Below, piece after piece: positions 2,607 to 19,146 of a stretch of 64,000 nt of DNA; the first letter of the stretch is position 1; every line of letters begins with the position of its first letter. This DNA comes from a bacterium (GTDB taxonomy: Bacteria > JACRDZ01 > JAQUKH01), in NCBI GenBank assembly GCA_028719205.1, contig JAQUKH010000001.1, positions 80,603-144,602 of the forward strand, given 5' to 3'. The notes beneath the pieces were generated by a model. That model was not told the origin of the DNA. It did not search any database and worked only from the letters and a program-made list of their open reading frames with translations. A program made the translations under genes and the position numbers.

Positions 2607-2632
2607 TCCTCCTCTTTTTTTAAAGAGGAGGA
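2607..2632. other. perfect 11-bp inverted repeat tcctcctcttt-tttt-aaagaggagga (GA/CT-rich hairpin) in the intergenic spacer. A second hairpin tcccct-N12-agggga lies about 60 nt upstream.
   Basis: Seen directly; no flanking U-run, so not a canonical intrinsic terminator. Confidence 0.4.
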
Positions 2633-2660
2633 TGGGAGGAGTTCTCTTAATGTTATTCTT

Positions 2661-2709
2661 TCAGCTTTTGAATGAATTTAGCTGATAGCTGAGTGCTGAA
2701 TTCTGACAA
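2661..2709. repeat. family-1 TCAGC-heptad element, right-arm-only (half) copy
   Basis: tcagcttttgaatgaatttagctgatagctgagtgctgaattctgacaa matches the right arms at 7001-7031 and 8307-8337. Confidence 0.6.
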
Positions 2710-2710
2710 C

Positions 2711-4477: not shown

Positions 4478-4497
4478 TATCCCCCCTATTTAAAAAA

Positions 4498-4921
4498 TAG
4501 CATTCAGCAATCAGCTGTCAGCATTCAGCTTTTTAATGAAAGACGTAATCATGCGCTTAATTTCTATTACCTTTTCAGTAAGACACTGGAAATCAGAATG
4601 GCTCAGCAACTCAAGATCATGAGTAAGCAGAAGATGATATTCTAACTCACATGCAGAACCCATCGCAATCTGAAAGAAACGCGATAACTCAGCTTCTCCC
4701 TTTCTTCCGCAGCCTTCTGCAATGTTAGCTGGAATAGAAGCACACGAACGCCGAATTTGGCTTGTCAGACCAAACAACTCATTTTTTGGAAAACTTGAAG
4801 TAGCTTTGTATACAGCCAAAGTTAATTCATGAGACTTCTCCCAAACTTTCAGTTCTCTAAAATTCTTCAATTGTATCGCTCCTTATTTTGCTGACAGCTG
4901 ATCGCTGAGTGCTGACAGCTC
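4498..4921. mobile_element. family-1 palindromic element carrying a gene. Left arm 4498-4529 and right arm 4890-4920 bracket the four-helix-bundle protein gene.
   Basis: The arms gcattcagcaatcagctgtcagcattcagc and gctgacagctgatcgctgagtgctgacagct are inverted TCAGC-heptad arrays as in the empty copies. The gene's last 7 codons lie inside the left arm. Confidence 0.4.
4511..4870 (-). CDS. four-helix-bundle protein (23S rRNA intervening-sequence protein family, PF05635/TIGR02436)
   Basis: ...LAVYKATSSFPKNELFGLTSQIRRSCASIPANIAEGCGRKGEAELSRFFQIAMGSACELEYHLLL... TTG start preceded by AAGGAG. Confidence 0.85.
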   Translation of the reverse strand: MKNFRELKVWEKSHELTLAVYKATSSFPKNELFGLTSQIRRSCASIPANIAEGCGRKGEAELSRFFQIAMGSACELEYHLLLTHDLELLSHSDFQCLTEKVIEIKRMITSFIKKLNADS

Positions 4922-6127
4922 TTATATGGCTTTATACGCTTCCTTCCTCTTCAGTATCCTTTGTAAATAATCTATTGTTTCCTGTTTTGGTAATTTTTTT
5001 ATTAACGTTTCATAGACAACTTTTGAAGTCATACTATTTATAATGGCATCTGCTTTTTTGATATCTTTCACGCCTGCAAATGTTTGCGCGAGATTTCCTA
5101 TCCCCGTATTATAAGCGGCAATAACGCAGTAAAGCCTGCTTTCTACATCTTTTATATTTTTGCAGTAACCATAAAATAATAATCCAAGATAAGCAGTTCC
5201 AATATTTATGTTGTTTTCATCATTATATAAATAAGAAGGGCTCAATAAATATGACTTCCCATATAAAATTTTCGTAACATCTTTACCGGCTGTTCCAGGG
5301 ACCACCTGCATAAGCCCATAGGCGGGAATCGGAGACTTTGCCATCGGATTAAAAGCGCTTTCTGTATGTATTACTGCCAATGCCAGAGACAGATCTAATT
5401 TATTTTTATCCGTGTATTTGCTGACTGACGCTTTATATTGTTTTGCTCTTTTAAGTAAACTATCAGATGGCAGGTCTATTTTTATGCTAATTACAATCGT
5501 TTTCTCAACTTTTGACGGCGCTTCCTGAATTTTAGCTTTTGCTACTATCTTTTTTACTTCTTTAGAAACTTCTTCTTTTTTAGGCGTGGGAGTATTAAAA
5601 AATACAGGCGCCAGGATCGGATCGCTTTTCACCTCATCTTTTTTTATATTCTTTACTTCTTTAATTACCTTTTTTTCTATGTTCTGTGAAAGCTTATCTT
5701 TTTCAAAGGCCGTTTTTTTGTCTTCAACCATTAAATCTTCCAGTGCCTTTTTAATTTTATTCTCTTTTTCCTCTTTTTTTTCATTCTGGCCTACGATTAT
5801 ATCTATTTTTATATTATTATTCTCAAAATCCACAATTTTTTTTGTTTGATAATCAGGAGAGTACTCAACCCATTTTTTATTATCAGAAATTTCAGGTTTA
5901 TCCCAGTTTGCTAATATCTCTTTTTTGTAATTCTCATATTCTTCTTCTACTATATTTTTATATTGTTCAAATTCTTTTTCTATTTCCGCTTGATATTCCT
6001 CAAATTCCTGCTGTTCCTGAGCAACTCCATTTTCCTGCTGTTTAACAAAGTCTTCAAAAGATTCAGCGGATACAAATGAAAAGTTAAAAAATATCATTAC
6101 ACCGGCCAAAACAATTACTTTTTTCAT
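4922..6127 (-). CDS. MltC-like membrane-bound lytic murein transglycosylase (SLT domain) with E/K-rich coiled N-terminal region
   Basis: HTESAFNPMAKSPIPAYGLMQVVPGTAG catalytic motif. Start chosen at ATG 6127 (MKKVIVLAGVMIFFNFSFVSA signal peptide, GGAAGGAA RBS). The longer ORF to 6160 would start with TTG inside the repeat. Confidence 0.75.
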   Translation of the reverse strand: MKKVIVLAGVMIFFNFSFVSAESFEDFVKQQENGVAQEQQEFEEYQAEIEKEFEQYKNIVEEEYENYKKEILANWDKPEISDNKKWVEYSPDYQTKKIVDFENNNIKIDIIVGQNEKKEEKENKIKKALEDLMVEDKKTAFEKDKLSQNIEKKVIKEVKNIKKDEVKSDPILAPVFFNTPTPKKEEVSKEVKKIVAKAKIQEAPSKVEKTIVISIKIDLPSDSLLKRAKQYKASVSKYTDKNKLDLSLALAVIHTESAFNPMAKSPIPAYGLMQVVPGTAGKDVTKILYGKSYLLSPSYLYNDENNINIGTAYLGLLFYGYCKNIKDVESRLYCVIAAYNTGIGNLAQTFAGVKDIKKADAIINSMTSKVVYETLIKKLPKQETIDYLQRILKRKEAYKAI

Positions 6128-6148
6128 TTTTTGTTTTTCCTTCCAATT

Positions 6149-6227
6149 AGCTATCAGCAATCAGCGCTCAGATATCAGCTAATTCAAATAAAAGCTGAAT
6201 GCTGACAGCTGATAGCTGAACGCTTAG
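6149..6227. repeat. family-1 TCAGC-heptad palindromic element (complete, empty)
   Basis: agctatcagcaatcagcgctcagatatcagct - aattcaaataaa - agctgaatgctgacagctgatagctgaacgct. Confidence 0.7.
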
Positions 6228-6898
6228 TATTTCTTAAACTTCTTGATAATCCAAATAACAACATATATTGCCACACAAAACCCTACAAAAAACGCAAGTA
6301 TAAGTTCATTGGTTCCTAAACTAAAACCGCTTTTTTCAGATATGGAAGATTCCGATAACGGTTCCACTTTTGCTTCAGATTTAGCTTCTTCCTTGACTTC
6401 TTCTTTTACCGCTTCTTTCACTTCTTCTTTTTGTATTTCTTTTGGTTTTTCTACTGCTATTTTTTCAACCTGTTTAATTTCAACTGTTTCAGCTTTTATA
6501 TCCGCTAAAATCAAATTTTCTTTTTTATTTTCAACCGCAGCCCCTTTACGAAGCTCTTCTAATTTATCTATTTCCTTATCTAGCTCATCCTGCCCATTTT
6601 TTGCTTTATTCTCCTGCCATAATGCTTCTTCGTTTATTTTTTTTTCTTTTTCGGGAGCAGCTTTTCCTTCGGTTTTAGCCTCATTTGAAATACTAATTGA
6701 TTTTTTGTCTTCTGAAATTTCTTTTTTAAACTTATTAAAATCCTCTAAATTTTCTTTCTTGTGCTCCTGAAAATCCTCTTTCATCTTTTGACTGGTTTCT
6801 CCCTCAAGCTCATTTTCAACGTCATCATATGTTTCAGCAAATAAAAACGTACTATTTAATAACATTATTATTCCGATAAAAATAAGTAATTTTTTCAT
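6224..6898 (-). CDS. secreted E/K-rich low-complexity protein with C-terminal transmembrane anchor
   Basis: Signal peptide MKKLLIFIGIIMLLNSTFLFA (ATG 6898, AAGGAG RBS); C-terminal LILAFFVGFCVAIYVVIWII; contains the ALWQENKAKNGQDELDKE motif shared with 7562..8164. Confidence 0.5.
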   Translation of the reverse strand: MKKLLIFIGIIMLLNSTFLFAETYDDVENELEGETSQKMKEDFQEHKKENLEDFNKFKKEISEDKKSISISNEAKTEGKAAPEKEKKINEEALWQENKAKNGQDELDKEIDKLEELRKGAAVENKKENLILADIKAETVEIKQVEKIAVEKPKEIQKEEVKEAVKEEVKEEAKSEAKVEPLSESSISEKSGFSLGTNELILAFFVGFCVAIYVVIWIIKKFKKY

Positions 6899-6924
6899 TC
6901 TATTATTTCTCCTTTGAAGTTTAA

Positions 6925-7031
6925 GCATTCAGCTCTCAGCTATCAGCACTCAGCTTTTTAATAGCATTCATCCATCTGCATTCAGTTTTTGAATGGATTT
7001 AGCTGATAGCTAGTAGCTGACCGCTGAACGC
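6925..7031. repeat. family-1 TCAGC-heptad palindromic element (complete, empty)
   Basis: gcattcagctctcagctatcagcactcagc ... agctgatagctagtagctgaccgctgaacgc. Confidence 0.7.
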
Positions 7032-7037
7032 TTCTTT

Positions 7038-7496
7038 TCATTGCAACACCATCCATACATGAATTTCCCCTGATTTTTCATCTTTCCAGATCTCTTCAAT
7101 ATTCGCTTTTACACTTTTACTATCAGACGTCTGAACGCTATAAGTACCCATATATGTCTTTGCGTCATTCTGTGTACCGGTTGTCGCGGTTACAAGATAA
7201 CTATTAACCTTTACCCCTAACTGCCTTGCTATATCATCCAAGGCCCTTTCTATAGCCAATTTTCTCTGTTCATTTTCACTTTTTATATGTATTCCGGATG
7301 TCCCAACACCGCCAATATTGCCTTTCATTCCCGGATTCCAATACCATTCCGGTTTACCATTTACTATTTTTGTCCCTTTTGATGTAACGTTCGTAATTAT
7401 TGATCCGCTATTATCCGCTTTTTTTACGCAGGATGACGCGGTAAACGCCAATATAACTACAGGTATTAGTAATAACCGGCTAAAAATATTTTTCAA
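7038..7496 (-). CDS. LPP20/FlgP-like lipoprotein
   Basis: Lipobox TASSC; PEWYWNP...GGVG...A..A..LA pattern. TTG start. Confidence 0.55.
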   Translation of the reverse strand: MKNIFSRLLLIPVVILAFTASSCVKKADNSGSIITNVTSKGTKIVNGKPEWYWNPGMKGNIGGVGTSGIHIKSENEQRKLAIERALDDIARQLGVKVNSYLVTATTGTQNDAKTYMGTYSVQTSDSKSVKANIEEIWKDEKSGEIHVWMVLQ

Positions 7497-7561
7497 ATTA
7501 ATACCCCCATTTTATTGGAGGAAAAGCATAAGATCTGCTTTCCCTCCAACTCTAATATTTA

Positions 7562-8164
7562 CTATTTTTTAGATTCAACTAATTTATTTACTTCTTTGTC
7601 CAGTTCATCCTGCCCATTTTTCGCTTTAAACTCCTGCCATAAAGCCTGTTCGTTCTTAAAACTGGTTTCAACCTGGTCTTTTATGGATTTCTTAGCTAAT
7701 TCATTATCAATAACAATCAAAACATATAAATTATCTTTTGGGGATGCCCAACTATCCCTAAGTGTTGTACCATTTAAAGTTTGGCTTGCAACTTGTTTTG
7801 ATACATCCGCTGATACCCTGTCAACCATTTCGCCATTACCAACCCCTGTAACATTCATAAAAGATTTAACCATATTTTTTACTTTTAACTCCATCATTCT
7901 GGCAAGTTCATTTCTTCCGTTGGCCAAAGCCTCTGTTCTTGCAAAGGACATACCGGCTTTACCTACTTTAGCAATACCAACTGCCGCGATCCCGCCTTCT
8001 ACCTGAGAGGTGGTTACCCATTTTGGAGCATCTTTAAATTCACTTTGTACAGTTGTATCCTGTTGAGTGTCTGTTTGCTTTGTTACGGCCTTAGTTGTTC
8101 CACAACCGGCAGAAAACACCACTGCAATAGCCAAAATACTTAACGAAATCATTTTCTTTTTCAT
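7562..8164 (-). CDS. LPP20/FlgP-like lipoprotein
   Basis: Lipobox FSAGC; APKWV...GGIAAVGIAKVG...ARTEALANGRNELA; strong AAGGAGGAT RBS. Confidence 0.65.
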   Translation of the reverse strand: MKKKMISLSILAIAVVFSAGCGTTKAVTKQTDTQQDTTVQSEFKDAPKWVTTSQVEGGIAAVGIAKVGKAGMSFARTEALANGRNELARMMELKVKNMVKSFMNVTGVGNGEMVDRVSADVSKQVASQTLNGTTLRDSWASPKDNLYVLIVIDNELAKKSIKDQVETSFKNEQALWQEFKAKNGQDELDKEVNKLVESKK

Positions 8165-8230: not shown

Positions 8231-8337
8231 GCAATCAGCAGTCAGCTTTCAGCTTTTTAATAGCTTTCTGCGTTCAGTTATCATTAGTCAGCTTTTGAAT
8301 AAAATTAGCTGATAGCTGAATGCTGAAATCTGATTGC
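8231..8337. repeat. family-1 TCAGC-heptad palindromic element (complete, empty), located in the 5' leader of 7562..8164
   Basis: gcaatcagcagtcagctttcagc ... agctgatagctgaatgctgaaatctgattgc. Confidence 0.7.
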
Positions 8338-8414: not shown

Positions 8415-8431
8415 TGCAAGAACCATGCCAA
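8415..8431 (-). promoter_or_regulatory. sigma-54 (-24/-12) promoter. Minus-strand sense TTGGCATGGTTCTTGCA.
   Basis: TGGCAT-N5-TTGCA with correct spacing; 16/18 identical to the promoter at 16190-16206. Confidence 0.6.
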
Positions 8432-8576: not shown

Positions 8577-8591
8577 ATGCATGGAATTCCA
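8577..8591. promoter_or_regulatory. putative EBP enhancer (UAS) palindrome ATGCATGGAATTCCA, about 155 bp upstream of the sigma-54 promoter
   Basis: Same 15-mer as in the 16342-16359 palindrome, with the same spacing to the promoter. Confidence 0.45.
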
Positions 8592-8626: not shown

Positions 8627-8670
8627 GTCAGCATTCAACTTTTGCATAAAATTAGCTGATAGCTGAAAGC
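8627..8670. repeat. family-1 element, half copy
   Basis: gtcagcattcaacttttgcataaaattagctgatagctgaaagc. Confidence 0.55.
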
Positions 8671-8673
8671 TCC

Positions 8674-10176
8674 TTATACAATATGCCCCCCTTTGTCAGG
8701 TTTATTAATATACTTTCGTCCTTTTGCCGTAATTTTGTACTTTTGGAGACGGCTGTTGGGCTTTTCCAGAATGGTTCTTTCAATAAGCCCTTCTGACAAA
8801 AGATCTTGAACCAACCGTTTAAGTGCCCCTGTAACTTGCTTCCTTCCAACTTGCACAGATATCTCAGACATAGAAAGCGGTTTATCCTTTAATGCTATTA
8901 TAACTGACTCGGCCCCTGACTCGGCCCCTGACTCGGCCCCTACAACCGGTTTTAATTTCACTAAAATTTTACGCCATACTGTTAAAATAAAGAACCCATT
9001 TTCTAAATGGAATTCCGGTGGTTTCATGCCTGCTTTTCGGCAATTATCAAACATATCAACAGTTCCGGTTCCAGCCTTTTCGATATATTTTGTCAGAAAA
9101 AGCGGTTCGGCAATCAGCGGATTTCCAGGGTGAGACGAATGAGGCATCGATAAACTCTCAATTGTCAGTGACGGCGGCAAAGTTCCAGGATTCCATACCT
9201 CAAGGCGATCTGCAAAAAGCATAATTTCAACGCTGGCATTGCTTATATAATCACGATGAGCTACTGCATTTACAATTCCCTCCGCGACCACTTCTTGCGG
9301 AATATCATATTCAACAGGAGCTTGCGGCCCTTGCGCCCGTGTTCCAACAAAACGGTTAAGTTTTGACATCACGAAATCAACCGACTGATCGACCATATCA
9401 AAAACCGTTCCCTTGTAAATTTGATATGATGGAATCGGCTTGAGTTTCTGTGTACCGTGAAAATGCATACATTTCACTTCGGAAGTAATCAGAAACCGCT
9501 GTGGTTTGACTCCAAATAATAAAATTGCCGCATGATTCGGTTTCCCTTTATCAAGCAGATCCAGATGGGTCAAAACATCAACAACAGGTGTTGTTTCTGC
9601 TAAAGCGTAATCACGGGCGTTGTGCGCGCGTGAAAGAAACCAGCGAATCTTATCGTCCGAAATATCGGCGACCTCCGCATTAAGACACATCGTCGCGTCA
9701 AATGGCCCGGTGTGGATCCGCCCGGAACCAAGAAGATAATGTACCAGGCTTGCGTAGACAGCTGAATGCAATTCTGGCAATGTATTAAAACGCCGTCGAA
9801 TCAACTGTGCTCCTGCTAAATTGATCAAAGAAATCATCTTTGGATGCCGGGATGCATCGCTATCGCCTTTGACAAAGATATAGCGAGGTTTACTACCCTG
9901 CGATGCCAAAAGAAATTCTTTATGCGTCGCGGACATTCCGTCGGAATCTTCAATGCCATACTTATTACCAAACAGGCCAATATAAATATCGCTCCGTTTA
10001 ACTTCTTCCAAGTACACCTCATCAGCACGGCGATCAGTAGCAGGAATATCCTCAAACAGAAACACATTAAAAAACCTGTTTAATAACGCGTCTCCCTGTA
10101 TATAATCTTTCAGAGCACGGCGTTCTTCGCTAAATTCTTTTTGAACACTGCTGATAAATATTTTATATTTTGTCAT
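8674..10176 (-). CDS. DUF4062-like N-terminal domain + AlbA_2 (Schlafen-like) + HATPase_c_4 + C-terminal winged HTH (RecG-like transcriptional regulator architecture, COG2865)
   Basis: KIFISSVQKEFSEERRALKDYI...SDIYIGLFGNKYG (DUF4062 pattern); ...NAVAHRDY...GTGTVDM... (HATPase_c_4); C-terminal wHTH. Confidence 0.55.
   Translation of the reverse strand: MTKYKIFISSVQKEFSEERRALKDYIQGDALLNRFFNVFLFEDIPATDRRADEVYLEEVKRSDIYIGLFGNKYGIEDSDGMSATHKEFLLASQGSKPRYIFVKGDSDASRHPKMISLINLAGAQLIRRRFNTLPELHSAVYASLVHYLLGSGRIHTGPFDATMCLNAEVADISDDKIRWFLSRAHNARDYALAETTPVVDVLTHLDLLDKGKPNHAAILLFGVKPQRFLITSEVKCMHFHGTQKLKPIPSYQIYKGTVFDMVDQSVDFVMSKLNRFVGTRAQGPQAPVEYDIPQEVVAEGIVNAVAHRDYISNASVEIMLFADRLEVWNPGTLPPSLTIESLSMPHSSHPGNPLIAEPLFLTKYIEKAGTGTVDMFDNCRKAGMKPPEFHLENGFFILTVWRKILVKLKPVVGAESGAESGAESVIIALKDKPLSMSEISVQVGRKQVTGALKRLVQDLLSEGLIERTILEKPNSRLQKYKITAKGRKYINKPDKGGHIV
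8906..8941. repeat. 3x12-nt perfect tandem repeat (gactcggcccct) encoding an (AESG)3 linker
   Basis: Seen directly. Confidence 0.9.
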
Positions 10177-10195: not shown

Positions 10196-12466
10196 TTATT
10201 TATATTCACTGCCACGAACAGGCCAAACAGAATAAAAATAGTTATCATTAAACAAACGAAGCTCTTGACCGTTAGAAAAATCAACAATTCGGCCATCAAT
10301 ATTTATCCAATAGCCCTGACTTTCAGGCACTAAATTAACAAAAGGATGTTGCTCTTGTTTATTATAAACAGTTTTCATTCTTATCAACTCTTTATATGTT
10401 GGCAATCTCCATCCAAAATATTTTTCATAATTTAAATTATTACATGCTAATTCAGCATTTTCCCAAATCACTTTGTTTTTTAAATAATTTGCGTCCTTTA
10501 ACCACAATAGTTTTGTAACATTATCATAAATAACACCATTCCCTAAATCTATGAATTTTGAAGGAAATAAAGCATATTTATTAATTAGTTTGGACCCAGT
10601 TAAATCCATAAATCTTGAAGAAAATTCATATTTTTTATTTAACGCATCATCAATAACATATGCTTCATTAATACTAAAATCTTTTGTCGTTGGAAAATTC
10701 ACTTTGATTTCAGCCCTTAGCAAATTATTTTCAAAATGCTGTTTCAACACTTTTGCCTCTTCTCTTGGAATTAGTATATTTTGTTTACATGTTACTTGAA
10801 TTCCTTTGATTGGTTGTTTTATTCTTATGGTAACGGGGTAAAAATTAAACTCGGAATTGTACTGTCGAAGTTCTAATATTAAATCATTGTATGTTAAAAC
10901 AAATTCATTTTCCGAAAGCTGTTTTAGCCTTTCAATAAATGGCGTGATTTGTTTATAATATTCAGATTCAATTTTACTCGATAATGCCTCAAATTCAGGC
11001 GTTTGCTCTTTATCTAAATTTTCTTTTTCCTTTAATATTTCAATTGACAATCTGTTCTTAAATTCAATTTCTGACTCAAACTCATCTTTATTAGAGTTTA
11101 ATATTTTCCCAAATTTCTCATTAATTCTTATACATATCTGGTTTATTCCATTAGTCAATTCTTTTCTATAATTTTTCTGAATGTCTTTTAATTGTGCGTC
11201 TATTTCCTCCATCTCGTTTATTGTAGCTTCAGGAGAAATTGATCTTAATGTTGCACCTTCCAGCGATTTCCTTTTACCTTCAACTTCCTGTTTAAGCATT
11301 GCTAATCTGGTTTCTTCTTCCTTCTTTTTTTGGATCAATTCATTTTCTTTTTTTAATCGTTCCTTTTCTTCGTCTTCCCTTTTTTTACGGTTTTCTTCCA
11401 ATGCATCTTGTTTTAATTGTTCCGCCCTTAATTTTGCTTCAATTTTTATTTTTTCGATCTCTGCCTGATATTTTGCACTTTCATCATTTGCCTTTAAAGC
11501 AGATTCTTCCAATAATTTTAACCGATCAAGTTCTTTTTGCAGGTTTACAACTTCCGCTTGATTATCTTCCAGTTTGCGTTCAATTGAAGGGATAAAAACA
11601 TAATCTCCTAATCCATATAACTCTCCATATTTTGGTGTTTGTATATGGTTTCTCGCGTTTGCGTCTGAGAATACTTTTTCTTTAAGCGCAGTGCTTATTT
11701 CAGTGGCTGTTATAAAATCATCTGTATTTTCCAGAAGTTCAATAAACCTGCCGGTAAAAACCGAATGGCCTTTAGGCCCGCCGTCTAATACCTGCTGGTC
11801 TTTATCCCCCGCGGTTAACACTTGTCTGACCCGCTCTTTAGAAATTTCTTTCAAATAGTTAAAATCCCTTGCTGTTTCTCTATTTGCCCCTCTTTTTGTT
11901 ACAAGAATTCCGCCATAGCACGCATCAACAATATAGAAAATATGTTTTGCCGGTATTCGTTTTGAAATATCATCTCTAATCATTGTCATAGAAAAATTTT
12001 TATATAATTCTTCTTTTTTGAATGTTCCGTCAAATGGTATAAGATAACCCAAATCCCCTTCCGCTGTTTTTTCCGTATATCCATGCCCTGCCCAGAAAAC
12101 AAAAATCGCGTCTTCTTCTGTAACCTGGCTAAGATTACCTAAAAGAATTTTAGTAATATTTTCTTTTGTAGCATCTTTATTGTATAAGGTAATGATCTTA
12201 TCAAATTTAAAATTCTTCCTGATAGCGTCTTCAACCCCTTTAGCGTCCTTTACCGCATAAGCCAATTGCATGTCATATGGCAAATTTTCATATTGGTCAA
12301 TTCCAATAATAACCGCGTAAGATTTGTTATATAACTTAAGTTCTTTTTTCTCTCCCGATGTTTTATCAACGGCAATGATTTTTATACCGCGGGTATCATT
12401 AATTGCGTATATTCCGCTTGATATAAAACAAGCAATAATTATTAAAAATAATAATTTTAATTTCAT
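10196..12466 (-). CDS. secreted peptidase C14 caspase-domain protein + long coiled coil + C-terminal DUF1566 (Lcl C-terminal-like) domain
   Basis: Signal peptide; FWAGHGY and VDACYGG dyad motifs; E/K/R-rich coiled coil; C-terminal WRLPTYKEL...WPVRG, characteristic of DUF1566. Confidence 0.8.
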   Translation of the reverse strand: MKLKLLFLIIIACFISSGIYAINDTRGIKIIAVDKTSGEKKELKLYNKSYAVIIGIDQYENLPYDMQLAYAVKDAKGVEDAIRKNFKFDKIITLYNKDATKENITKILLGNLSQVTEEDAIFVFWAGHGYTEKTAEGDLGYLIPFDGTFKKEELYKNFSMTMIRDDISKRIPAKHIFYIVDACYGGILVTKRGANRETARDFNYLKEISKERVRQVLTAGDKDQQVLDGGPKGHSVFTGRFIELLENTDDFITATEISTALKEKVFSDANARNHIQTPKYGELYGLGDYVFIPSIERKLEDNQAEVVNLQKELDRLKLLEESALKANDESAKYQAEIEKIKIEAKLRAEQLKQDALEENRKKREDEEKERLKKENELIQKKKEEETRLAMLKQEVEGKRKSLEGATLRSISPEATINEMEEIDAQLKDIQKNYRKELTNGINQICIRINEKFGKILNSNKDEFESEIEFKNRLSIEILKEKENLDKEQTPEFEALSSKIESEYYKQITPFIERLKQLSENEFVLTYNDLILELRQYNSEFNFYPVTIRIKQPIKGIQVTCKQNILIPREEAKVLKQHFENNLLRAEIKVNFPTTKDFSINEAYVIDDALNKKYEFSSRFMDLTGSKLINKYALFPSKFIDLGNGVIYDNVTKLLWLKDANYLKNKVIWENAELACNNLNYEKYFGWRLPTYKELIRMKTVYNKQEQHPFVNLVPESQGYWINIDGRIVDFSNGQELRLFNDNYFYSVWPVRGSEYK

Positions 12467-12470
12467 AATA

Positions 12471-13544
12471 CTATCTTTGACCTACATTATGTCTTTTGAC
12501 ATCATAAAAAGCCACACTTGATGCTTTTATATTATCTTTATTTTTATCTTTAATGTTTGAATCAATATAATATGGCAATGAGAATGAAAAATAATTACCA
12601 ATATCTTCTATTTTAATATTATTATCTTCGGGATTAAAACTGAGAGTAATATCAATGCCGCTTTTTACATTTAGCTTAAGAGCACCACTTAACACGTCAT
12701 CCCATTTTAAAAAATTTAAATTATTAGTATTAAAATTACTATATTGACTAGATTTGACAAATCCACTAACATATTTAAAAATATTCCCTTTTTCATCAGA
12801 TAAAGTTGGGTTAATTTCATAAACTCCTATTATTAAAATCTCTTTATCCAATTGATTAACAACATTTAATAACACTTCAGCTCTTCCCTTTGATAAAACT
12901 TTTACTTGTTTTACAGTAAAAAGTAAATCTCCAACTTTCTTTGAGTTTGAATTTCCGACTGAAGGGACATAGGAAGGAGTATTTTCAGAACTTTGCTGTT
13001 CAAAGGGCTGATTTGATTCAACTATTCCTCTCTCCAGAAGTTCATTTATCGCCTGGGTCTTTGCGATATTTCCTGAAGAAGCGCCAATCACCTTGGCGGT
13101 ACTTATATCTATAATTTTAACTGAAAGCCTTACATTGTCGCCAAACGGGGTAATACTTCCTGTGATAATTGCTTCTACTCCGGCTATCTGCCCCAGCTTT
13201 TTGGCTGATTCAGGGTTTACTAAATCAGATAGTGAAAGTTTATGTTCCCGTAAAAGAGCTTTAAGGTGAATTCTATCCACCACTTCAAATCCTTTCCCTG
13301 CAGAGGTAAGAGTTACTGAAAACTCCTCTGCTAAAAATCTCCCTAATTCGGTTACATTACCCTGAAGGTCTGTGAAATCAACCACAGCTATTGACTTCTT
13401 CCCCGCTTGTGATATATTTTCTGCCATTGTGGCAGACAGGGCGCTTATTTCTTTTTCATAAGCCTTCGATAAATTTGAACCAGACAGTAAAAATACTGTT
13501 GATAAAAGGCAAACAAGAAAAAACTTCTTAATGATACTTTCCAT
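12471..13544 (-). CDS. FlgO/CsgG/LpoB-like fold periplasmic protein (paralogue B)
   Basis: Signal peptide; IAVVDFTDLQGNVTELGRFLAEEF...VVDR..L..LL.E..L pattern. The N-terminal 190 aa are near-identical to 13601..14590. Confidence 0.5.
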   Translation of the reverse strand: MESIIKKFFLVCLLSTVFLLSGSNLSKAYEKEISALSATMAENISQAGKKSIAVVDFTDLQGNVTELGRFLAEEFSVTLTSAGKGFEVVDRIHLKALLREHKLSLSDLVNPESAKKLGQIAGVEAIITGSITPFGDNVRLSVKIIDISTAKVIGASSGNIAKTQAINELLERGIVESNQPFEQQSSENTPSYVPSVGNSNSKKVGDLLFTVKQVKVLSKGRAEVLLNVVNQLDKEILIIGVYEINPTLSDEKGNIFKYVSGFVKSSQYSNFNTNNLNFLKWDDVLSGALKLNVKSGIDITLSFNPEDNNIKIEDIGNYFSFSLPYYIDSNIKDKNKDNIKASSVAFYDVKRHNVGQR

Positions 13545-13600
13545 TATATTAATCCTCCCTTTTTGTAAAAATCTTTATTTCTTATTTCTATCGTTTATCA

Positions 13601-14590
13601 TCATTTTGTTATTGGAATATTGCGAAGCTGGGCAATAATCCATTTGTTGTCTCTATAGCATGGGATTTCTAGCAACGATAGTTTGCTAACATTTTTTGAA
13701 ACTGTTTCAATTTTAAATGTTAATCTCGTTGGCACATCAGAAACAAGCAAATTTCTAGCACATCTGTCCTTATGATTTCCAAGCTCAATACCTTCCGGAC
13801 AATATTCATTCCCAAAATCATCAAAAATTCTTGATGATTTTGTCCAATCAGTACTACCAGTACAACCACAAATCATTATTTCCCTATCGTTTTTATCTTT
13901 ATTAGTAATTATTAAATTACAGGTTATTGTCGTATTAGAAATTTTACACTCTTTTACCTCAAAAAGAAAATCATCCACTTCCACACTTTGCTGTGCTTTT
14001 GTTGGTTTCTGTGATGATATTGTTTGTATTGGTTTACTTACATCTTGTGCTTGAACTTCTGCTTCTATCCCCCTCGCCAAAAGTTCATTAATAGCTTGTG
14101 TTTTAGGAATATTTCCAGCAGTGGCGCCAATAACCTTGGCAGTACTTACATCTAATATTTTAATGGTAAGCCTTACACTTTCACCAAAAGGGGTAAGGCT
14201 TCCTGTAATAATCGCTTCTACTCCGGCTATCTGCCCCAGCTTTTTGGCTGATTCAGGGTTCACTAAATCGGAAAAGGCAAGTTTATGTTCCTTTAAAAGG
14301 GCTTTAAGATGGGTTCTATCTATTACTTCAAATCCTTTTCCAGCCCCGGCAAGAGCAACCGAAAACTCCTCTGCTAAAAATCTTCCAAGCTCGGTTACAT
14401 TACCCTGAAGGTCTGTAAAATCAACTACGGCTATTGTCTTCCTGCCAGCCTGTGTAATATTTTCTGCCATCGTAGCAGACAAAGCGCTTATTTCTTTTTC
14501 ATAAGCCATAGAGAAACCAGAGCCTGACAGCGAAAATATTATTGATAAAAAACAAATAAAATAAAACTTCTTCCATGCATCTTTTTTCAT
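13601..14590 (-). CDS. FlgO/CsgG/LpoB-like fold periplasmic protein (paralogue A) with Cys-rich C-terminal domain
   Basis: Same N-terminal domain. Start at ATG 14590 with AGGAGG RBS; the longer ORF to 14620 would overlap the upstream stop. The C-terminal 120 aa contain 8 Cys. Confidence 0.5.
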   Translation of the reverse strand: MKKDAWKKFYFICFLSIIFSLSGSGFSMAYEKEISALSATMAENITQAGRKTIAVVDFTDLQGNVTELGRFLAEEFSVALAGAGKGFEVIDRTHLKALLKEHKLAFSDLVNPESAKKLGQIAGVEAIITGSLTPFGESVRLTIKILDVSTAKVIGATAGNIPKTQAINELLARGIEAEVQAQDVSKPIQTISSQKPTKAQQSVEVDDFLFEVKECKISNTTITCNLIITNKDKNDREIMICGCTGSTDWTKSSRIFDDFGNEYCPEGIELGNHKDRCARNLLVSDVPTRLTFKIETVSKNVSKLSLLEIPCYRDNKWIIAQLRNIPITK

Positions 14591-14609: not shown

Positions 14610-16070
14610 TTATTTCCCAAATATTAAAGTTAATTTGTTAATAAATTCATCAATTAACGGTTCAGCTAATTTTTTAGTAAACTGATCATCTCTTTTTCCA
14701 TTAATCGCCTGTTTCTGATCCAATCCGAATATCTTTTCTGTTCTATTAATTGAAACAACTTTTTCTTTATTAGAAACTTTGTTTAGGGTTAGAATAGCCT
14801 TAGCTATATAAGATTTTAAACCCATGTTATCCTGAGAAAATTCAATCGAGGTTTCTATAGCTAAATTTAAATCGGGAGTAACATCCTCTAATTTTTCTGT
14901 TTTTTTCTTGTAATCATCTGCTTCTTCATTATTACCTCTATTACGGGCAACTTTTTCTTTAGCAGTAAAAATGTTTTTTTGGCCTGTGATTTCATCCAAT
15001 TTTTGTGAATTATAAATATGCCAACCAGCTTCTGTAAGTTTTTGATCCAATAATGTCTCTAAAATATCACTACCTTCTCCTTTTATTTCCATAATTACAT
15101 TTTTAGGAACAAGTTTTATCTGTTTTTCTTTTGATTCTACAACAGGAGCTGATACTTCCTCTTTTTGAGTTACAGGTTGTGGAGCAGTAACCTGTTTCGG
15201 TGAAGAATCAGACGGCACAATAAATACAAACTCGCCTCCCTCAGATCCCGGCAAATTGCCAAATTCCGGTGTCTGTTCTGCAAGCTCCGCTACTTTTGGC
15301 TGAATATAAGAGTTTATTTCTGAGGCAGTGATAATACCATCGCCATTATAGTCGGCCATACCTGTACTTAACGCCTCTAGGAAAGTTCCTGTAAAGGCGG
15401 AATGGTTCTTATAACCGCCATCACTTACCGGCTCCTTGCCTCCGGCGGTTAGGGCCTGCCGGGCTTTCCGTTTTGTGATTTCCTGTAAGTATCGCGGATG
15501 TTCCTTATCCACCGCCGCTGCGCGCGTGGTAAAGAACATACCTGAATAACAGGCATCAAGCACCATATAGATTTGTTTAGCCTTGATATCTTTTAAAATA
15601 TCTTTTAGCTCGGTCATGGAAATCGCGGTGACTCTGTATTCCCCCTGCCGAAAATCAACCGGTATGAGGTAACCATTATCTAAACTACTTTCCCCATGCC
15701 CGGCAAAATAGACTAATAATCTATCTCTATCACCTATTTTATAGGGCAATTCGTCCCCAAGTATTTGCAAAATTCCGCTTTTTGTGGCTTTATTATCATA
15801 CAGGGTAAAAATATGATCCTCCGCGAATCCATATTTATCCTGAAGCATTTGTTTTACCGCCTTAGCATCATTTACAGCATACTTGAGCTTTCCAACCTTT
15901 TGATAATCATCAATTCCTACCACCACCGCCCAGCTTTGTCCAAAGGGCTCCAGAACTTCCCCGTCTTTAGCGACAATCTTAATACTACGTAATCCCTCTG
16001 CGGCATAACCCAAAGTTGTATTAAATATAACCGATATTATGAATAAAACTATAATACGTCTGATATGCAT
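14610..16070 (-). CDS. secreted peptidase C14 caspase-domain protein with uncharacterised C-terminal domain
   Basis: About 85% aa identity to 1046..2500 over the caspase domain (YFAGHG, LDACYSG); the C-terminal 200 aa have no recognisable motif. Confidence 0.85.
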   Translation of the reverse strand: MHIRRIIVLFIISVIFNTTLGYAAEGLRSIKIVAKDGEVLEPFGQSWAVVVGIDDYQKVGKLKYAVNDAKAVKQMLQDKYGFAEDHIFTLYDNKATKSGILQILGDELPYKIGDRDRLLVYFAGHGESSLDNGYLIPVDFRQGEYRVTAISMTELKDILKDIKAKQIYMVLDACYSGMFFTTRAAAVDKEHPRYLQEITKRKARQALTAGGKEPVSDGGYKNHSAFTGTFLEALSTGMADYNGDGIITASEINSYIQPKVAELAEQTPEFGNLPGSEGGEFVFIVPSDSSPKQVTAPQPVTQKEEVSAPVVESKEKQIKLVPKNVIMEIKGEGSDILETLLDQKLTEAGWHIYNSQKLDEITGQKNIFTAKEKVARNRGNNEEADDYKKKTEKLEDVTPDLNLAIETSIEFSQDNMGLKSYIAKAILTLNKVSNKEKVVSINRTEKIFGLDQKQAINGKRDDQFTKKLAEPLIDEFINKLTLIFGK

Positions 16071-16189: not shown

Positions 16190-16206
16190 TGCAATTACCG
16201 TGCCAA
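16190..16206 (-). promoter_or_regulatory. sigma-54 (-24/-12) promoter. Minus-strand sense TTGGCACGGTAATTGCA; about 120 nt upstream of the caspase start at 16070.
   Basis: Consensus TGGCAC-N5-TTGCA. Confidence 0.65.
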
Positions 16207-16341
16207 AGTGTTCATTTGTACAAAAATAAATAAAAATAATCTGTTTCTCTCAATTTTGTTCCGGATTCCCGATAAAAACATTCGTAAATTACGGCATACG
16301 TTAAAAAAAATGACCTATTCCTCAAAAGCCTCAATTATGAA

Positions 16342-16359
16342 TGCATGGAATTCCATGCA
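16342..16359. promoter_or_regulatory. perfect 18-bp palindrome TGCATGGAATTCCATGCA, putative EBP enhancer (UAS) about 146 bp upstream of the sigma-54 promoter, abutting the EBP stop codon
   Basis: Seen directly; its core recurs at 8577-8591 with equivalent spacing to the second sigma-54 promoter. Confidence 0.5.
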
Positions 16360-19146
16360 TCAATTCTCTTTTAGAACTATACCAATTAATTCTTCAATAT
16401 ATTTATGATATTTTTTTGGTAAATTTTTAAAACGCCGCTGACATTCTTTAGTTGCTGACTCTTTATTTTGATATTCTTTTATCACATCAACAACATTTTG
16501 GTAATACTCATTTAAACGCTGAACAAGTAATTCACTCTGCTCAGGGTCATTTGTAAGTTTCGAGGCTGTTGATTTGATATCCCATACATTTTCGGAAAGT
16601 TTCTGGAAACAAATTCCTTTAAACCTTGAACCTACAGTTCCTCTGGCCTGATTAAGCATACTTGCTGTATTTTCTATTACAAAATTATTGCTTCTCATAA
16701 TTTTCAGAAATTCCTCATCTTCAACATTTTCAAATATTTCCATATGTTCTTTTAATGATATATTATTCTCAATACCAGCTGTCTTTGGCAAACAGATATC
16801 TTCCTCTCTGATAACAGCTTTTTCCGATAAAGCTATGGCATTGAGCACTACGCTTCTCAAATCCCTTACATTCCCAGGCCAGGAATAGGAATTAAGTTTT
16901 ATCTTAGCTTCATCATTAAATTCTTTTCCAGGAGCGTTGGATATTTTTACAAAATATTCCGCCAATAATAAAATATCGTCTTTTCTTTCTCTTAAAGGCA
17001 CCAATTCTATAGTATGAACTTTTAACCTGTAATATAAGTCTTCTCTAAATCTTTTATTTGCTATCTCATCTTCAATATTTTTATTGGTAGCGGCAATAAT
17101 TCTAATATCTACTTTTATCGGGATAGTGTCCGTTCTTCCGACTTTATCAATAGTTTTCTGTTCCAAAACCCTTAATATCTTCGCCTGCAAATCATACTTC
17201 ATATCTCCTATTTCATCTAAAAACACAGTACTCTTATCTGCCAGTTCAAATAATCCTTTTTTATCACTAATCGCGCCTGAAAATGCTCCTTTTTTATGCC
17301 CGAACATCTCGCTTTCTAAAAGCGTTTCAGGCACAGAAGGTACATTAATCTCTATCATTGTTTTATCACTTCTTGAACTCATTTTATGTATTGCCTCGGC
17401 AAATAATTGTTTACCTGTACCTGTTTCTCCCAGAATAATAACCGGCTCTTCGCTCATCGCGAACTTTTTAGCGGTTTGAAATAATTCAAGCATTTGCTTG
17501 TTCTGAGTTACAATACCAAAAGACCTGCATTCATCTATAAGTTTTCTCATCTCTTTGGCAGGTTTTTCATAAATATTGATAAATGGCTTTGTGGTTTTTT
17601 TTGATAATTTTATAATCTTCTCTAAAAGATCATTACGTTCCTTTTCTAATTTATTAATATTATTTTTGTCCGTTTTTATGCTATCTTCCAACTGCTTGAC
17701 TTTGTTTTGAAAATCTTTTTTTTCTTCATTAATATATGCTTCATAATCCAATAATTTATCCTGCATATCTTCCAGTATTTCTTTTTTCCGGAACAGATCA
17801 TTATTAATATTTTTAAGGTTTTGCATAAGCTGTTCAATTTCTTTTCCTCTTATCAAATAATCTCCCAGCAAATTCACGCTCCCAAAAATAAAAAGTCCCA
17901 TAAGCGGATAAAGATCAGCCAGCGATATTCCTGAAATTATAAAAAGTGAGTATGATAAAACAAGATATATTGGGATCCCGATAATAGACGACAAGAAAAC
18001 TATTATTCCATTAGCTCTCACAGATAATAATCCAATTATAGATATCAGAATGATCATTATGACAAAGCTGTAAAATATGGGGACTTCCCTGATAAAATTA
18101 CCGCTTAGTATAGTATAAAGAATATGAGAATGGATACCTATCCCCGGGTAATTAGTATCTATTGGAACATTATGAACGTCCTTATTAACCGAAGAAGCGT
18201 TTCCGACAAGGCATATTTTGTCTTTTAATCTTTCAGAAAGTTCCTTTTCCCGTTCAGGTTTCCCTTCCGGGTTAAGAACAGTAACATACCAGAATGGTTC
18301 TAAATAATCATGTTCATTCACATTCCATGGCTTTATGTAATTGATCCACATCTCGCCCTTATCGTTAATAGGAATAACAAGATCCATTATTTTTCCATCA
18401 GGGTATTTTGCCTCCGGAAGAATTATTGAATGCCCGGGTTTAACTATGATTTTATCTTTTGGTACCTGAAGATAATCACAGGCCAGTAAAAGATTCACTG
18501 AAGGGAAAAGATTACCGTCAATATCAATTAAAAGAGCTGCCTTACGGAAAACATCATTTTTCTCATTTTCTTCATTTCCTGTGCTAATGTGACCAATACC
18601 TTTTGCCGCTTTTGCAAGGTCATCATTTAGTAATGAACCATTTCCGGAAAACCAGAAACTTTCCGGTATACTATTTATTGTTAAAAAATTCTTTTTTATT
18701 ATTTCTATGAAGGGTAGCGGGTATTTGTCTAAAGTAAATGCCTCGTTTTTATTTTTAACTAAATTAAAACTTACCGGCCAATAGACATTTCCTGCCTCGT
18801 TAGTCGCGTTGATCAATGAAAGCGGGATATCACCTCTCAGTATGAAATCATAAAAGATTTCTTTAACGCCATAACTTTTCAATTTATTGATCATTTTAGC
18901 GTGTAGATCAGGGGTAGGATAACCAATTTGCGGGATTGTTTTTACGTCGTCCACTGAAATAGTAACTATTTGTTTTTTTATTTTGAATGGGTCGGAACGA
19001 AGATTCCCGCAGATTTTAAGTTTAAGATCATAAAGTTTATTATTTAACGATTGAATAGGTGGGATAAAGATACCTATAAAAACTAATAGTAAACACAGGA
19101 ATAGAATATAAAATCTAGTGTTAATACCGGAAATTTTATTCTCCAT
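16360..19146 (-). CDS. sigma-54-dependent transcriptional activator (bacterial enhancer-binding protein) with N-terminal CHASE2 extracytoplasmic sensor, TM segments, coiled coil, AAA+ sigma-54 interaction domain and Fis-type HTH
   Basis: GETGTGKQLFAEAIH Walker A; GAFSGA (GAFTGA variant); ESEMFGH; C-terminal NTASMLNQARGTVGSRFKGI HTH. Confidence 0.8.
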   Translation of the reverse strand: MENKISGINTRFYILFLCLLLVFIGIFIPPIQSLNNKLYDLKLKICGNLRSDPFKIKKQIVTISVDDVKTIPQIGYPTPDLHAKMINKLKSYGVKEIFYDFILRGDIPLSLINATNEAGNVYWPVSFNLVKNKNEAFTLDKYPLPFIEIIKKNFLTINSIPESFWFSGNGSLLNDDLAKAAKGIGHISTGNEENEKNDVFRKAALLIDIDGNLFPSVNLLLACDYLQVPKDKIIVKPGHSIILPEAKYPDGKIMDLVIPINDKGEMWINYIKPWNVNEHDYLEPFWYVTVLNPEGKPEREKELSERLKDKICLVGNASSVNKDVHNVPIDTNYPGIGIHSHILYTILSGNFIREVPIFYSFVIMIILISIIGLLSVRANGIIVFLSSIIGIPIYLVLSYSLFIISGISLADLYPLMGLFIFGSVNLLGDYLIRGKEIEQLMQNLKNINNDLFRKKEILEDMQDKLLDYEAYINEEKKDFQNKVKQLEDSIKTDKNNINKLEKERNDLLEKIIKLSKKTTKPFINIYEKPAKEMRKLIDECRSFGIVTQNKQMLELFQTAKKFAMSEEPVIILGETGTGKQLFAEAIHKMSSRSDKTMIEINVPSVPETLLESEMFGHKKGAFSGAISDKKGLFELADKSTVFLDEIGDMKYDLQAKILRVLEQKTIDKVGRTDTIPIKVDIRIIAATNKNIEDEIANKRFREDLYYRLKVHTIELVPLRERKDDILLLAEYFVKISNAPGKEFNDEAKIKLNSYSWPGNVRDLRSVVLNAIALSEKAVIREEDICLPKTAGIENNISLKEHMEIFENVEDEEFLKIMRSNNFVIENTASMLNQARGTVGSRFKGICFQKLSENVWDIKSTASKLTNDPEQSELLVQRLNEYYQNVVDVIKEYQNKESATKECQRRFKNLPKKYHKYIEELIGIVLKEN

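Follow-up and report, generated by a model that had tools for sequence, protein, structure and literature searches.

Two tandem minus-strand genes, here called A and B, lie in a 64,000-nucleotide stretch of a bacterial contig (JAQUKH010000001.1; the whole stretch is referred to below as the window) and encode members of a large, non-flagellar and uncharacterised protein family. In this family a strongly conserved domain of the TolB-N/LpoB/FlgO fold is followed by an Ig-like beta-sandwich. As judged from sequence, the partner domain that most often accompanies the family elsewhere is fused, in the window, to a secreted caspase whose gene immediately precedes B, and two putative sigma-54 promoters would tie the caspase/FlgO-like and LPP20 operons to an adjacent CHASE2-containing activator. 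Our preferred reading, to which we give somewhat less than an even chance, is that a regulated envelope caspase system uses A and B as its docking or scaffold subunits in the periplasm; their assembly into such a structure is a conjecture drawn from these combined features.

Gene A (positions 12471-13544, minus strand) specifies a protein of 357 residues composed of a signal peptide, a FlgO/LpoB-fold domain (residues ~28-175), a disordered linker (176-197) and a cysteine-free Ig-like beta-sandwich (201-352). Gene B (13601-14590, minus strand) follows the same plan, with its sandwich at residues 202-326 of a 329-residue protein counted from the ATG; the open reading frame listing also extends it to an alternative TTG start at 14620. 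Both reading frames exceed the Pfam gathering scores for CsgG and FlgO, in agreement with the original prediction of a tandem pair of FlgO/CsgG-like genes. The repeat that the two genes share was also correctly located, as an ungapped match between 13022-13529 and 14065-14572, offset by 1043 nt, but to call it nearly identical was an overstatement, as identity is only 82% over 508 nt. For the N-domain alone, identity between the paralogues is 83% at the DNA level, 85% at the protein level and just 67% at third positions, with dS = 0.72 and dN/dS = 0.12. These values are those of a long-established paralogous module maintained by purifying selection, and with such a dS, gene conversion or a recent duplication is rejected as the source of the common N-module. 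Moreover, even across phyla the N-domains of the family are ~71-76% identical in pairwise comparison (median), so that much of the similarity between A and B reflects general conservation. The claim that the genes diverge completely downstream of the repeat proved too strong: the BLASTP protein alignment still runs to residue ~240/253, the C-domain profiles match weakly (hhalign, 81% probability, E 1.2e-5, first 57 columns), and the AlphaFold models of A and B contain the same beta-sandwich with the same structural neighbours.

Both paralogues are closely flanked by caspase genes. Upstream of B lies a secreted caspase of 486 residues (14610-16070, minus strand) with an intact His-Cys dyad and a Pfam Peptidase_C14 match, whose residues ~318-485 form a separate domain, here termed X. 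Downstream, a secreted caspase of 756 residues (10196-12466, minus strand), which contains a long coiled coil and ends in an Lcl_C (DUF1566) domain, starts directly past the stop codon of A. The intervals between caspase, B, A and caspase are 19, 56 and 4 nt, respectively. The description of one paralogue as the neighbour of the caspase is thus right for B, but not as an exclusive property, since A precedes a caspase of its own. An Lcl_C protein likewise follows an A-type gene at one other locus (L070).

The surroundings of the family were compared at 81 other FlgO-like loci, where the commonest neighbour is a protein carrying an unnamed alpha/beta partner domain (upC). The gene for the upC domain adjoins the FlgO-like gene on the same strand, at a distance of at most 63 nt, in 24 of the 81 loci, and the domain often forms part of a FlgT-like three-domain (N-M-C) layout. 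In this layout upC sits between a FlgT_N-like and a C-terminal domain, the slot that X occupies in locus L042, where a protein with an X domain is encoded directly upstream of an A-type gene. The X domain is itself rare, with just 7 representatives among 1.8 billion proteins in an exhaustive representative search, and a metagenome scan with an X-domain alignment gave 324 pattern matches, none of which was confirmed. In the relatives P0236, P0238, P0240 and L042, X is preceded by FlgT_N (Pfam) and followed by a C-terminal domain detected by a custom HMM only; Pfam FlgT_M and FlgT_C gave no match. In the window protein, the caspase replaces FlgT_N and the C-terminal domain is absent.

The kinship of X and upC is distant. 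In one protein from another locus (L060:899-2029), the upC model (2e-17) and the X model (1.8e-6) match the same region, and local hhalign of the two domains gives 80.5% probability over 108 columns, which falls to only 18.5% on a subset of 20 sequences. A 6-sequence upC model did not match the caspase C-terminus when searched against the window proteins with hmmsearch, and neither X nor upC has a significant match to Pfam or to PDB sequences. A direct identification of the caspase C-terminus as upC was dropped after the negative hmmsearch and the low hhalign score on the subset. What relates X to upC is the common domain slot, the bridging L060 protein and the local hhalign match; together they suggest that X may be a rare, distantly related version of the upC partner domain, weakly linked to it in sequence.

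The genes around the pair extend the picture of an envelope cluster. Downstream of the 756-residue caspase, a cytoplasmic DUF4062/HATPase_c_4/Fic-like_C protein (8674-10176, minus strand) starts 19 nt past its stop codon; the two may be co-transcribed, and whether this protein belongs to the system is uncertain. Next on the same strand come a 200-residue LPP20 (FlgP-type) lipoprotein (7562-8164; lipobox FSAG|C; Pfam LPP20 1.5e-10) and a second small lipoprotein of 152 residues (7038-7496), which is LPP20-like by motif only, has no Pfam match and shows a weak phmmer link to the first. They are followed by an exported coiled-coil protein (6224-6928, minus strand) with a C-terminal membrane anchor and a motif, ALWQE-KAKNGQDELDKE, common to the LPP20 lipoprotein, by an exported lytic transglycosylase (4922-6160, minus strand; Pfam SLT 2.4e-23) and by a 588-residue DUF4384 protein with a lipoprotein-like N-terminus (2711-4477, minus strand; Pfam DUF4384 1.7e-26). 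A third secreted caspase, of 484 residues (1046-2500, minus strand), ends in Ricin-B lectin repeats rather than in an X domain; its caspase domain and that of the caspase upstream of B share 83% identity. Except for the cytoplasmic DUF4062 protein, all products of the envelope cluster bear signal peptides or lipoboxes. Genes for LPS synthesis in the rest of the window indicate that the organism is diderm.

Immediately upstream of the caspase/FlgO-like operon lies a gene for a 928-residue protein (16360-19146, minus strand) that combines CHASE2, an extracytoplasmic sensor domain (Pfam 5e-30), with a sigma-54 AAA+ activator (Sigma54_activat 2e-63). About 120 nt upstream of the ATG of the caspase preceding B is a sigma-54 -24/-12 element, TGGCACGGTAATTGCA (16190-16205, minus strand), the sole perfect TGGCAC-N5-TTGC in the 64 kb, against 0.04 expected by chance. 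A second element, TGGCATGGTTCTTGCA (8415-8430, minus strand), lies ~250 nt upstream of the LPP20 gene; the pattern TGGCAY-N5-TTGCW has just these two matches in the window, a number reached in none of 100 shuffles. Some 145 nt upstream of the first element, a palindrome, ATGCATGGAATTCCATGCAT (16341-16360), is a candidate upstream activator site, and an exact 14-mer within it, GGAATTCCATGCAT, has its only other copy at 8577-8590 (minus strand), ~150 nt upstream of the second element. Each sigma-54 element therefore lies ~140-155 nt downstream of an identical 14-mer. The palindrome was also returned by the terminator scan because of its location at the end of the activator gene, of which it could be a mere terminator; that scan was otherwise uninformative, and a sigma-70 promoter scan gave counts at shuffle level. 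As read from these motifs, the two promoters and the 14-mer would tie the caspase/FlgO-like and LPP20 operons to the adjacent CHASE2 protein as their presumed activator. Both fusions and operons that combine caspases with CHASE2 have been recorded (PMC3501461), and the window resembles such orthocaspase operons in having secreted Peptidase_C14 proteins with intact dyads beside a CHASE2 protein. It differs from them in that CHASE2 sits on a sigma-54 activator and the caspases are found among FlgO-like, LPP20, SLT and DUF4384 genes, a constellation for which the literature searches gave no description.

As the original prediction had it, the N-terminal module is related to FlgO and CsgG: the Pfam FlgO profile (PF17680) is matched near full length by both paralogues (profile positions 7-128/129 of 130; 40.9 bits for A and 37.7 bits for B, cut-off 22.6). 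The AlphaFold models (pLDDT 87 and 85 for the two paralogues, sandwich domains mostly >90) show a soluble alpha/beta domain with zero membrane hairpins, which has the LpoB fold and finds its best structural match in LpoB, the PBP activator. The FlgO/LpoB/CsgG-N fold is a building block of both outer-membrane rings and enzyme activators. Full-length homologues, 1399 for B and 1103 for A, occur in many phyla and include metagenome-assembled genomes, e.g. of Brocadia and Acidobacteriota; the NCBI name for the proteins is "FlgO family outer membrane protein", and for relatives some sources use "CsgG/HfaB family". An NCBIfam scan of A and B returned zero families, and Pfam coverage is confined to the N-terminal domain. 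The PADLOC defence models had zero matches for A, B, LPP20, the DUF4384 protein and one upC partner, and the caspases of the cluster match the generic caspase model only.

The constellation of FlgO-like, LPP20 and caspase genes seen in the window is largely absent from the 81 other loci, so that the co-occurrence check proposed with the original prediction came out mostly negative. Searches derived from the window found LPP20 near none of the 81 FlgO-like genes, while Peptidase_C14 is encoded within 5 kb in three (L029, L038 and L043), CHAT immediately downstream in two (L049 and L074) and a FlgT_N/FlgP-like partner domain in six. Given caspase or CHAT genes in five loci and LPP20 in none, the caspase link could be peculiar to this genome. 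The remaining neighbours are varied (RDD, M48 peptidase, gamma-glutamyltranspeptidase, toxin-antitoxin genes, integrases), as would fit a generic envelope module. It is on this point that the most serious alternative rests: A and B could be periplasmic housekeeping or accessory modules, such as LpoB-like regulators or binders of cell-wall components, with an unlinked partner and only incidental flanking by caspases. We regard this as unlikely, though with a real claim to attention, since besides the heterogeneous and mostly caspase-free neighbourhoods it has on its side LpoB as the closest structure and an extreme conservation of the N-domain across phyla that suggests a universal ligand. The tight gaps to caspase genes on both sides of the pair, the fusion of the usual partner domain to the upstream caspase and the recurrence of CHAT/caspase neighbours at the five other loci speak against it. 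The parallel with LpoB itself is one of concept, namely docking onto a periplasmic enzyme by way of a small, flexibly tethered alpha/beta domain. LpoB, however, is a lipoprotein whose long disordered linker is N-terminal, whereas A and B lack both this anchor and this linker and carry a C-terminal linker leading to a second domain; sequence identity is 13-19%, and Pfam LpoB (PF13036) has no match in either protein.

The C-terminal domain of B had been described as an 8-Cys domain of unknown fold. The protein does contain eight cysteines, but one belongs to the signal peptide, leaving seven in the domain, and the fold is recognisable: by structure comparison, the C-terminal domains of A and B are DUF4352/YcdA-like Ig sandwiches, close to Bacillus subtilis YcdA/YjhA (DUF4352) and to PCuAC/ApaG. 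The likeness to YcdA/YjhA is one of fold, accompanied for B by a weak, sub-threshold match to Pfam DUF5643 (E 0.0068; 16.8 bits, cut-off 34). A significant match in sequence was not found, and the Pfam DUF4352 model hits neither A nor B; unlike its B. subtilis counterparts, the domain stands behind a FlgO-like domain and, in the B type, has a conserved cysteine pair. Among 48 relatives, C215 is conserved in 45, C224 in 47 and C311 in 32, and the other four cysteines of the domain are present in at most three; most A-type proteins have no conserved cysteine in the sandwich. The sandwich thus exists in two old versions, a Cys-free A type and a B type whose conserved cysteine pair, placed by the model on adjacent hairpin strands, is probably a disulfide. 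These observations bear on a further alternative, in which function resides in the sandwich, as a PCuAC/ApaG-like binder of a ligand or metal, and A and B serve as sensors or chaperones in the periplasm, the Cys-rich B binding metal. The seven cysteines of B in this genome are unusual and would suit such a role, which we nevertheless hold improbable, given that only 2-3 of them are conserved in the B family, that most A-type proteins conserve none and that the model-based disulfide would account for the conserved pair. The metal ligands of PCuAC, moreover, are His and Met, which counts against a metal-binding reading of B.

A literal flagellar role, with A and B as FlgO subunits of an H-ring or basal disc, LPP20 lipoproteins as FlgP and a motor encoded elsewhere, is very improbable. 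In the flagellar H-ring, the rings have C58 symmetry for FlgO and FlgP and C26 symmetry for FlgT (bioRxiv 10.64898/2025.12.02.691832), and Vibrio FlgO is a single-domain outer-membrane lipoprotein, lipidated at Cys16 in V. cholerae. A and B share with it the near full-length Pfam FlgO match and the NCBI family name; in addition, LPP20 (FlgP-family) lipoproteins are encoded nearby and apparently co-regulated with the A/B operon, and partner proteins at other loci show a FlgT-like N-M-C organisation that begins with a FlgT_N/FlgP-like domain. Unlike the Vibrio protein, A and B carry the extra sandwich, occur as tandem paralogues and are predicted from their sequences to be exported, non-lipidated periplasmic proteins, their partner domain being fused to a caspase. 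A signal-peptidase-I motif, A|YExEI, with small residues at -1/-3, is found near position 27 in 212 of 234 relatives and a lipobox-like pattern in only two; A and B have no lipobox. The genomic context is equally non-flagellar: no flagellar family is present among the window genes listed or in any of nine Pfam-annotated neighbourhoods elsewhere, FlgT_N is the sole flagellum-named family in Pfam scans of the immediate neighbours at other loci, and the family occurs elsewhere in two- to three-gene cassettes in mobile-looking contexts. Of the FlgO-FlgP parallel that had been drawn, the part that finds some support is the common sigma-54/14-mer arrangement with the LPP20 operon, together with the FlgT_N/FlgP-like neighbours elsewhere; the expected LPP20 partner at other loci does not materialise.

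CsgG, PelC and GNA1162 (DUF799) lipoproteins also oligomerise as rings under the outer membrane. A and B differ from them in lacking lipidation and the CsgG transmembrane hairpins and in lying outside curli, Pel or DUF799-DUF4810 gene contexts; being non-lipidated, unlike FlgO, LpoB, PelC, CsgG and GNA1162, they are also less obvious candidates for an outer-membrane ring. That they form a CsgG-like outer-membrane channel exporting the neighbouring caspases, a variant of the suggested pore, is hardly credible despite Pfam CsgG scores of 40-47 bits and the CsgG/HfaB naming of some relatives, because the match covers only profile positions 6-106 of 210, the periplasmic, soluble alpha/beta half, and signal-peptidase-I sites take the place of lipoboxes, and no curli genes were seen in the window.

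If A and B are docking or scaffold subunits of an envelope caspase system, their N-domains would assemble with the partner domain, on the model of the Vibrio H-ring, where FlgO, FlgP and FlgT are packed next to one another, or of LpoB docked on its enzyme, and the two differing sandwiches would provide two binding specificities on one platform. Such a platform would hold or position the secreted caspases in the periplasm or beneath the outer membrane, with the LPP20 lipoproteins as membrane anchors and the SLT transglycosylase making room in the peptidoglycan. The whole cluster of ~15 kb would be turned on by the adjacent CHASE2 activator, through the two sigma-54 promoters, on an extracytoplasmic signal. 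A more far-reaching and distinctly speculative proposal, which we consider rather unlikely, is that the cluster is a non-flagellar descendant or cousin of the H-ring toolkit (FlgO-like, FlgP/LPP20 and FlgT-like partner), reused as a caspase platform built on demand under the CHASE2/sigma-54 switch for regulated envelope proteolysis or cell suicide. More generally, the cassette of FlgO-sandwich protein and partner, with more than 1000 members, would represent a hitherto unrecognised, modular means of docking enzymes in the periplasm, caspase, CHAT and M48 proteins among them.

Literature searches on the FlgO-sandwich branch found no paper describing it, nor did searches for FlgO/LPP20/caspase and DUF4384/caspase find one describing either combination. 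What emerges is a very large, cross-phylum, non-flagellar branch of the FlgO/LpoB/CsgG-N fold that is soluble, fused to an Ig-like sandwich and equipped with its own conserved partner domain. With that domain apparently fused to a caspase and a recognisable sigma-54/CHASE2 circuit alongside, the window gives a concrete handle on the function of the family. A docking platform of the kind considered here, if true, would bear on the role of bacterial orthocaspases, possibly in regulated envelope proteolysis or cell death, and on how exported ones are controlled.

The two neighbouring FlgO/CsgG-like paralogues occupy adjacent minus-strand open reading frames, A at 12471-13544 (357 aa) and B at 13601-14590 (329 aa from its ATG, with an extension possible from a TTG at 14620), which bears out the tandem originally predicted. 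Their proteins are 64% identical over 240 residues (BLASTP), and 13022-13529 aligns without gaps to 14065-14572 (508 nt, 82% identity); the repeat therefore lies where it had been placed, but it is not nearly identical. Within the conserved domain (148 codons), identity amounts to 83% at the DNA and 85% at the protein level, with dN = 0.083, dS = 0.72 and 67% identical third positions. This dS rules out recent gene duplication or conversion as the origin of the shared module, and A and B are old paralogues under purifying selection. The closest relative of the N-domain of A is that of B and vice versa (85%), the next best matches reaching 77%. Note also that in the NCBI annotation A (P0121, 318 aa) begins only at Met40, without the signal peptide (13428-13544); this deposited start is probably too short, since the longer frame from 13544 agrees with B and with the family.

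Pfam assigns both proteins to CsgG as well as to FlgO, the CsgG match covering only profile positions 6-106 of 210 and the FlgO match positions 7-128 of 130. AlphaFold models built from 48- and 51-sequence alignments (pLDDT 87 and 85) share one plan, consisting of a signal-peptide helix at the N-terminus, an alpha/beta domain at about residues 29-175, a linker at 176-197 with pLDDT <50 and an all-beta domain, whose block-mean pLDDT exceeds 95 across most of B and is partly lower in A. Structural matches, with paired scores for the two models, are LpoB (15.9 and 13.5), GNA1162 (DUF799; 11.6 and 9.0), FlgT in the Vibrio LPHT ring (9.8 and 8.1), TolB-N (9.7 and 7.5), PelC (8.6 and 7.2) and CsgG (8.6 and 6.3). 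Near-invariant stretches of the FlgO-like N-domain in the family alignments include AVVDFTDLQGNVTELGRFLAEEFS. The C-terminus of B, initially described as a Cys-rich domain of unknown fold, proves to be a divergent copy of the sandwich of A: both C-domains match Ig-like sandwiches (YcdA, 8.9/8.3; YjhA, 8.2/7.1; PmoF1/PCuAC, 9.0/7.5; also ApaG), and the profiles of the two C-domain families align with 81% probability (E 1.2e-5) across the first 57 columns. The total of eight cysteines in B was correct, but only seven belong to the C-domain, the eighth lying in the signal peptide. C215, C224 and C311 are conserved in the family (45, 47 and 32 of 48 relatives), the other four C-domain cysteines each occurring in at most 3 of the 48, among which B of the window has the highest cysteine count.

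The motif A|YExEI is found at about residue 27 in 212 of 234 relatives, and the corresponding signal-peptidase-I site carries Ala at -1 in 186 and Ser, Thr or Ala at -3 in 164; a lipobox-like pattern occurs in 2/234. The N-termini of the family thus fit processing by signal peptidase I and not as lipoproteins, whereas FlgO (as documented), LpoB, CsgG, PelC and GNA1162 are all lipoproteins.

Neighbourhoods were compared at 81 non-redundant loci, using search models derived both from the window and from these loci. The neighbour that recurs is a protein carrying an unnamed alpha/beta domain, here the partner domain upC; it is present in 34 of the 81 and in 24 is encoded in the same orientation, no more than 63 nt from the FlgO-like gene (20 upstream, 4 downstream). 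No match to upC was obtained in Pfam or among PDB sequences; its profile similarity to the FlgO-like domain is weak (72% probability). At six loci this protein is 350-400 aa long and its upC follows a FlgT_N-like domain, itself also matching a 171-aa putative lipoprotein (PDB 9hmf, E 5e-6); in 4/6 a C-terminal domain, detected by an HMM built for the purpose, comes after upC. These three-domain partners have the size and domain order of Vibrio FlgT (N 24-109, M 121-287, C 292-377). Tandem FlgO-like copies recur, with at least two in five loci at E < 1e-40. Co-occurrence with LPP20 genes elsewhere was a check named in the original prediction; window-derived searches found LPP20 proper in none of the 81 loci.

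In the window, secreted caspases flank the pair: one (14610-16070) lies 19 nt before B, and the other (10196-12466, 756 aa, with a coiled coil and Lcl_C) begins 4 nt after A. The C-terminal ~170 residues of the former, domain X, have 7 representatives among 1.8 billion proteins, and we regard X, with moderate confidence, as a divergent upC. This reading is based on several observations: proteins related to X have the composition FlgT_N + X + C-domain; one of them (L042:1486-2538) lies directly upstream of an A-type gene; X there fills the slot that upC fills in homologous three-domain proteins; one region of L060:899-2029 is matched by both the upC (2e-17) and X (1.8e-6) models; and local hhalign reaches a probability of 80.5% across 108 columns, against 18.5% on a smaller alignment. 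If so, the caspase would replace the FlgT_N-like domain of the family's partner protein. Across the first 287 residues, caspases 14610-16070 and 1046-2500 share 83% identity (dS ~1.1); they then continue into unrelated C-termini, X and Ricin-B lectin repeats, respectively. The caspase pair repeats the A/B design of a common N-module with swapped C-modules. X also contains a 33-residue insert, LDEITGQKNIFTAKEKVARNRGNNEEADDYKKK (14901-14999, caspase residues 358-390), identical at 30/33 positions to a stretch of P0237, a coiled-coil-containing CsgG/TolB_N/GNA1162-like protein from elsewhere; it may be an interaction motif common to both.

A CHASE2 + sigma-54 activator gene (16360-19146) lies directly upstream of the caspase-B-A-caspase block, and caspase-CHASE2 fusions and operons are on record (PMC3501461). 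The window holds only two sigma-54 -24/-12 elements of the form TGGCAY-N5-TTGCW, a number reached in 0/100 shuffles: 16190-16205, which precedes the caspase ATG by ~120 nt and is the sole perfect TGGCAC-N5-TTGC (0.04 expected by chance), and 8415-8430, ~250 nt before the gene of the FlgP-type LPP20 lipoprotein (7562-8164). Both have an exact GGAATTCCATGCAT ~140-155 nt upstream (16341-16360; 8577-8590), a 14-mer without further copies in the window and part of a 20-nt palindrome at 16341-16360. The two elements with their common 14-mer link this block and the LPP20 - LPP20-like - coiled-coil - SLT - DUF4384 - caspase block (1046-8164) as one probable regulon, and we infer that the neighbouring activator regulates both.

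All cluster products carry signal peptides or lipoboxes except a cytoplasmic DUF4062 protein and a small four-helix-bundle protein (TIGR02436, weakly Avd-like; 4511-4870, between the DUF4384 and SLT genes). The DUF4062/HATPase_c_4/Fic-like_C gene (8674-10176), with weak PADLOC matches to pAgo-associated models, lies 19 nt after the stop of the 756-aa caspase, between the two sigma-54 units. The C-terminus of the LPP20 lipoprotein and the middle of the coiled-coil protein (6224-6928) have in common ALWQE-KAKNGQDELDKE (21/26 residues identical). Short intergenic repeats, TCAGCTATCAGCTAATTTTAT (2672-2692, 8299-8319, 8646-8666; none expected by chance) and AGCTGTCAGCATTCAGCT (4513-4530, 6193-6210), look REP/MITE-like. 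The remainder (20312-64000) encodes CTP synthase, KdsB-like and heptose-pathway proteins, four heptosyltransferase-like proteins, LpxA, LpxD, LpxC/FabZ and two hybrid histidine kinases; these lipid A and LPS-core synthesis genes indicate a low-GC (~35%) diderm host.

The main rival explanation takes A and B as generic envelope modules with a local, incidental link to caspases. Neighbourhoods elsewhere are indeed heterogeneous, including RDD proteins (5 loci), zinc-ribbon proteins (4), an Lcl_C protein (L070), a DUF4062 protein 3' of the FlgO-like gene (one locus) and, for two FlgO-like genes, an upstream M48 peptidase. Just downstream of FlgO-like genes on two unrelated contigs, an RDD membrane protein is followed by an M48 peptidase (L002:8517-9952, L092:2268-3697), and this adds a further protease link that recurs in the family. 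Against this explanation stand the tight gene spacing to the caspases, the fusion of the partner domain to one of them, and caspase or CHAT proteins at five other loci (CHAT immediately downstream at L049 and L074; Peptidase_C14 within 5 kb at L029, L038 and L043). In lipidation, gene context and the transmembrane region, A and B depart from what defines a genuine flagellar FlgO or a CsgG-type pore; a pore had been entertained in the original prediction.

We propose instead a role for A and B as periplasmic docking or scaffold subunits, in which the conserved N-domain would bind the partner domain, carried here by the caspase, and the two differing sandwiches would offer two additional binding surfaces; LPP20 lipoproteins would anchor the assembly in the outer membrane, and SLT could open the peptidoglycan locally, by analogy with other envelope machines that carry their own transglycosylase. 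LpoB docking onto PBP1b and the H-ring, with FlgO and FlgP as C58 rings and FlgT as a C26 ring (bioRxiv 10.64898/2025.12.02.691832), are the two precedents for the working mode of this fold. That an H-ring-like toolkit was repurposed as a caspase platform seems to us rather unlikely.

Full-length homologues (1399 of B, 1103 of A; 45-57% identical overall) occur in Desulfobacterota, Nitrospirota, Brocadia, Acidobacteriota, Omnitrophota, WOR-3 and others. The folds are already known and relatives are automatically labelled 'FlgO family outer membrane protein' (NCBI) or 'TolB-like' (JGI), so that the bare finding is modest. In the literature searched, three things appear undescribed: the family of soluble FlgO-like + sandwich proteins, which has a partner domain of its own; the FlgT-like organisation of the upC partner; and the joining of the partner domain to a secreted caspase within a CHASE2/sigma-54 regulon. 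Between members of different phyla the N-domain retains a median pairwise identity of 71-76%. For a periplasmic domain that is uncharacterised, this is unusually strong conservation, hinting at a ligand that is universal or at frequent horizontal transfer.
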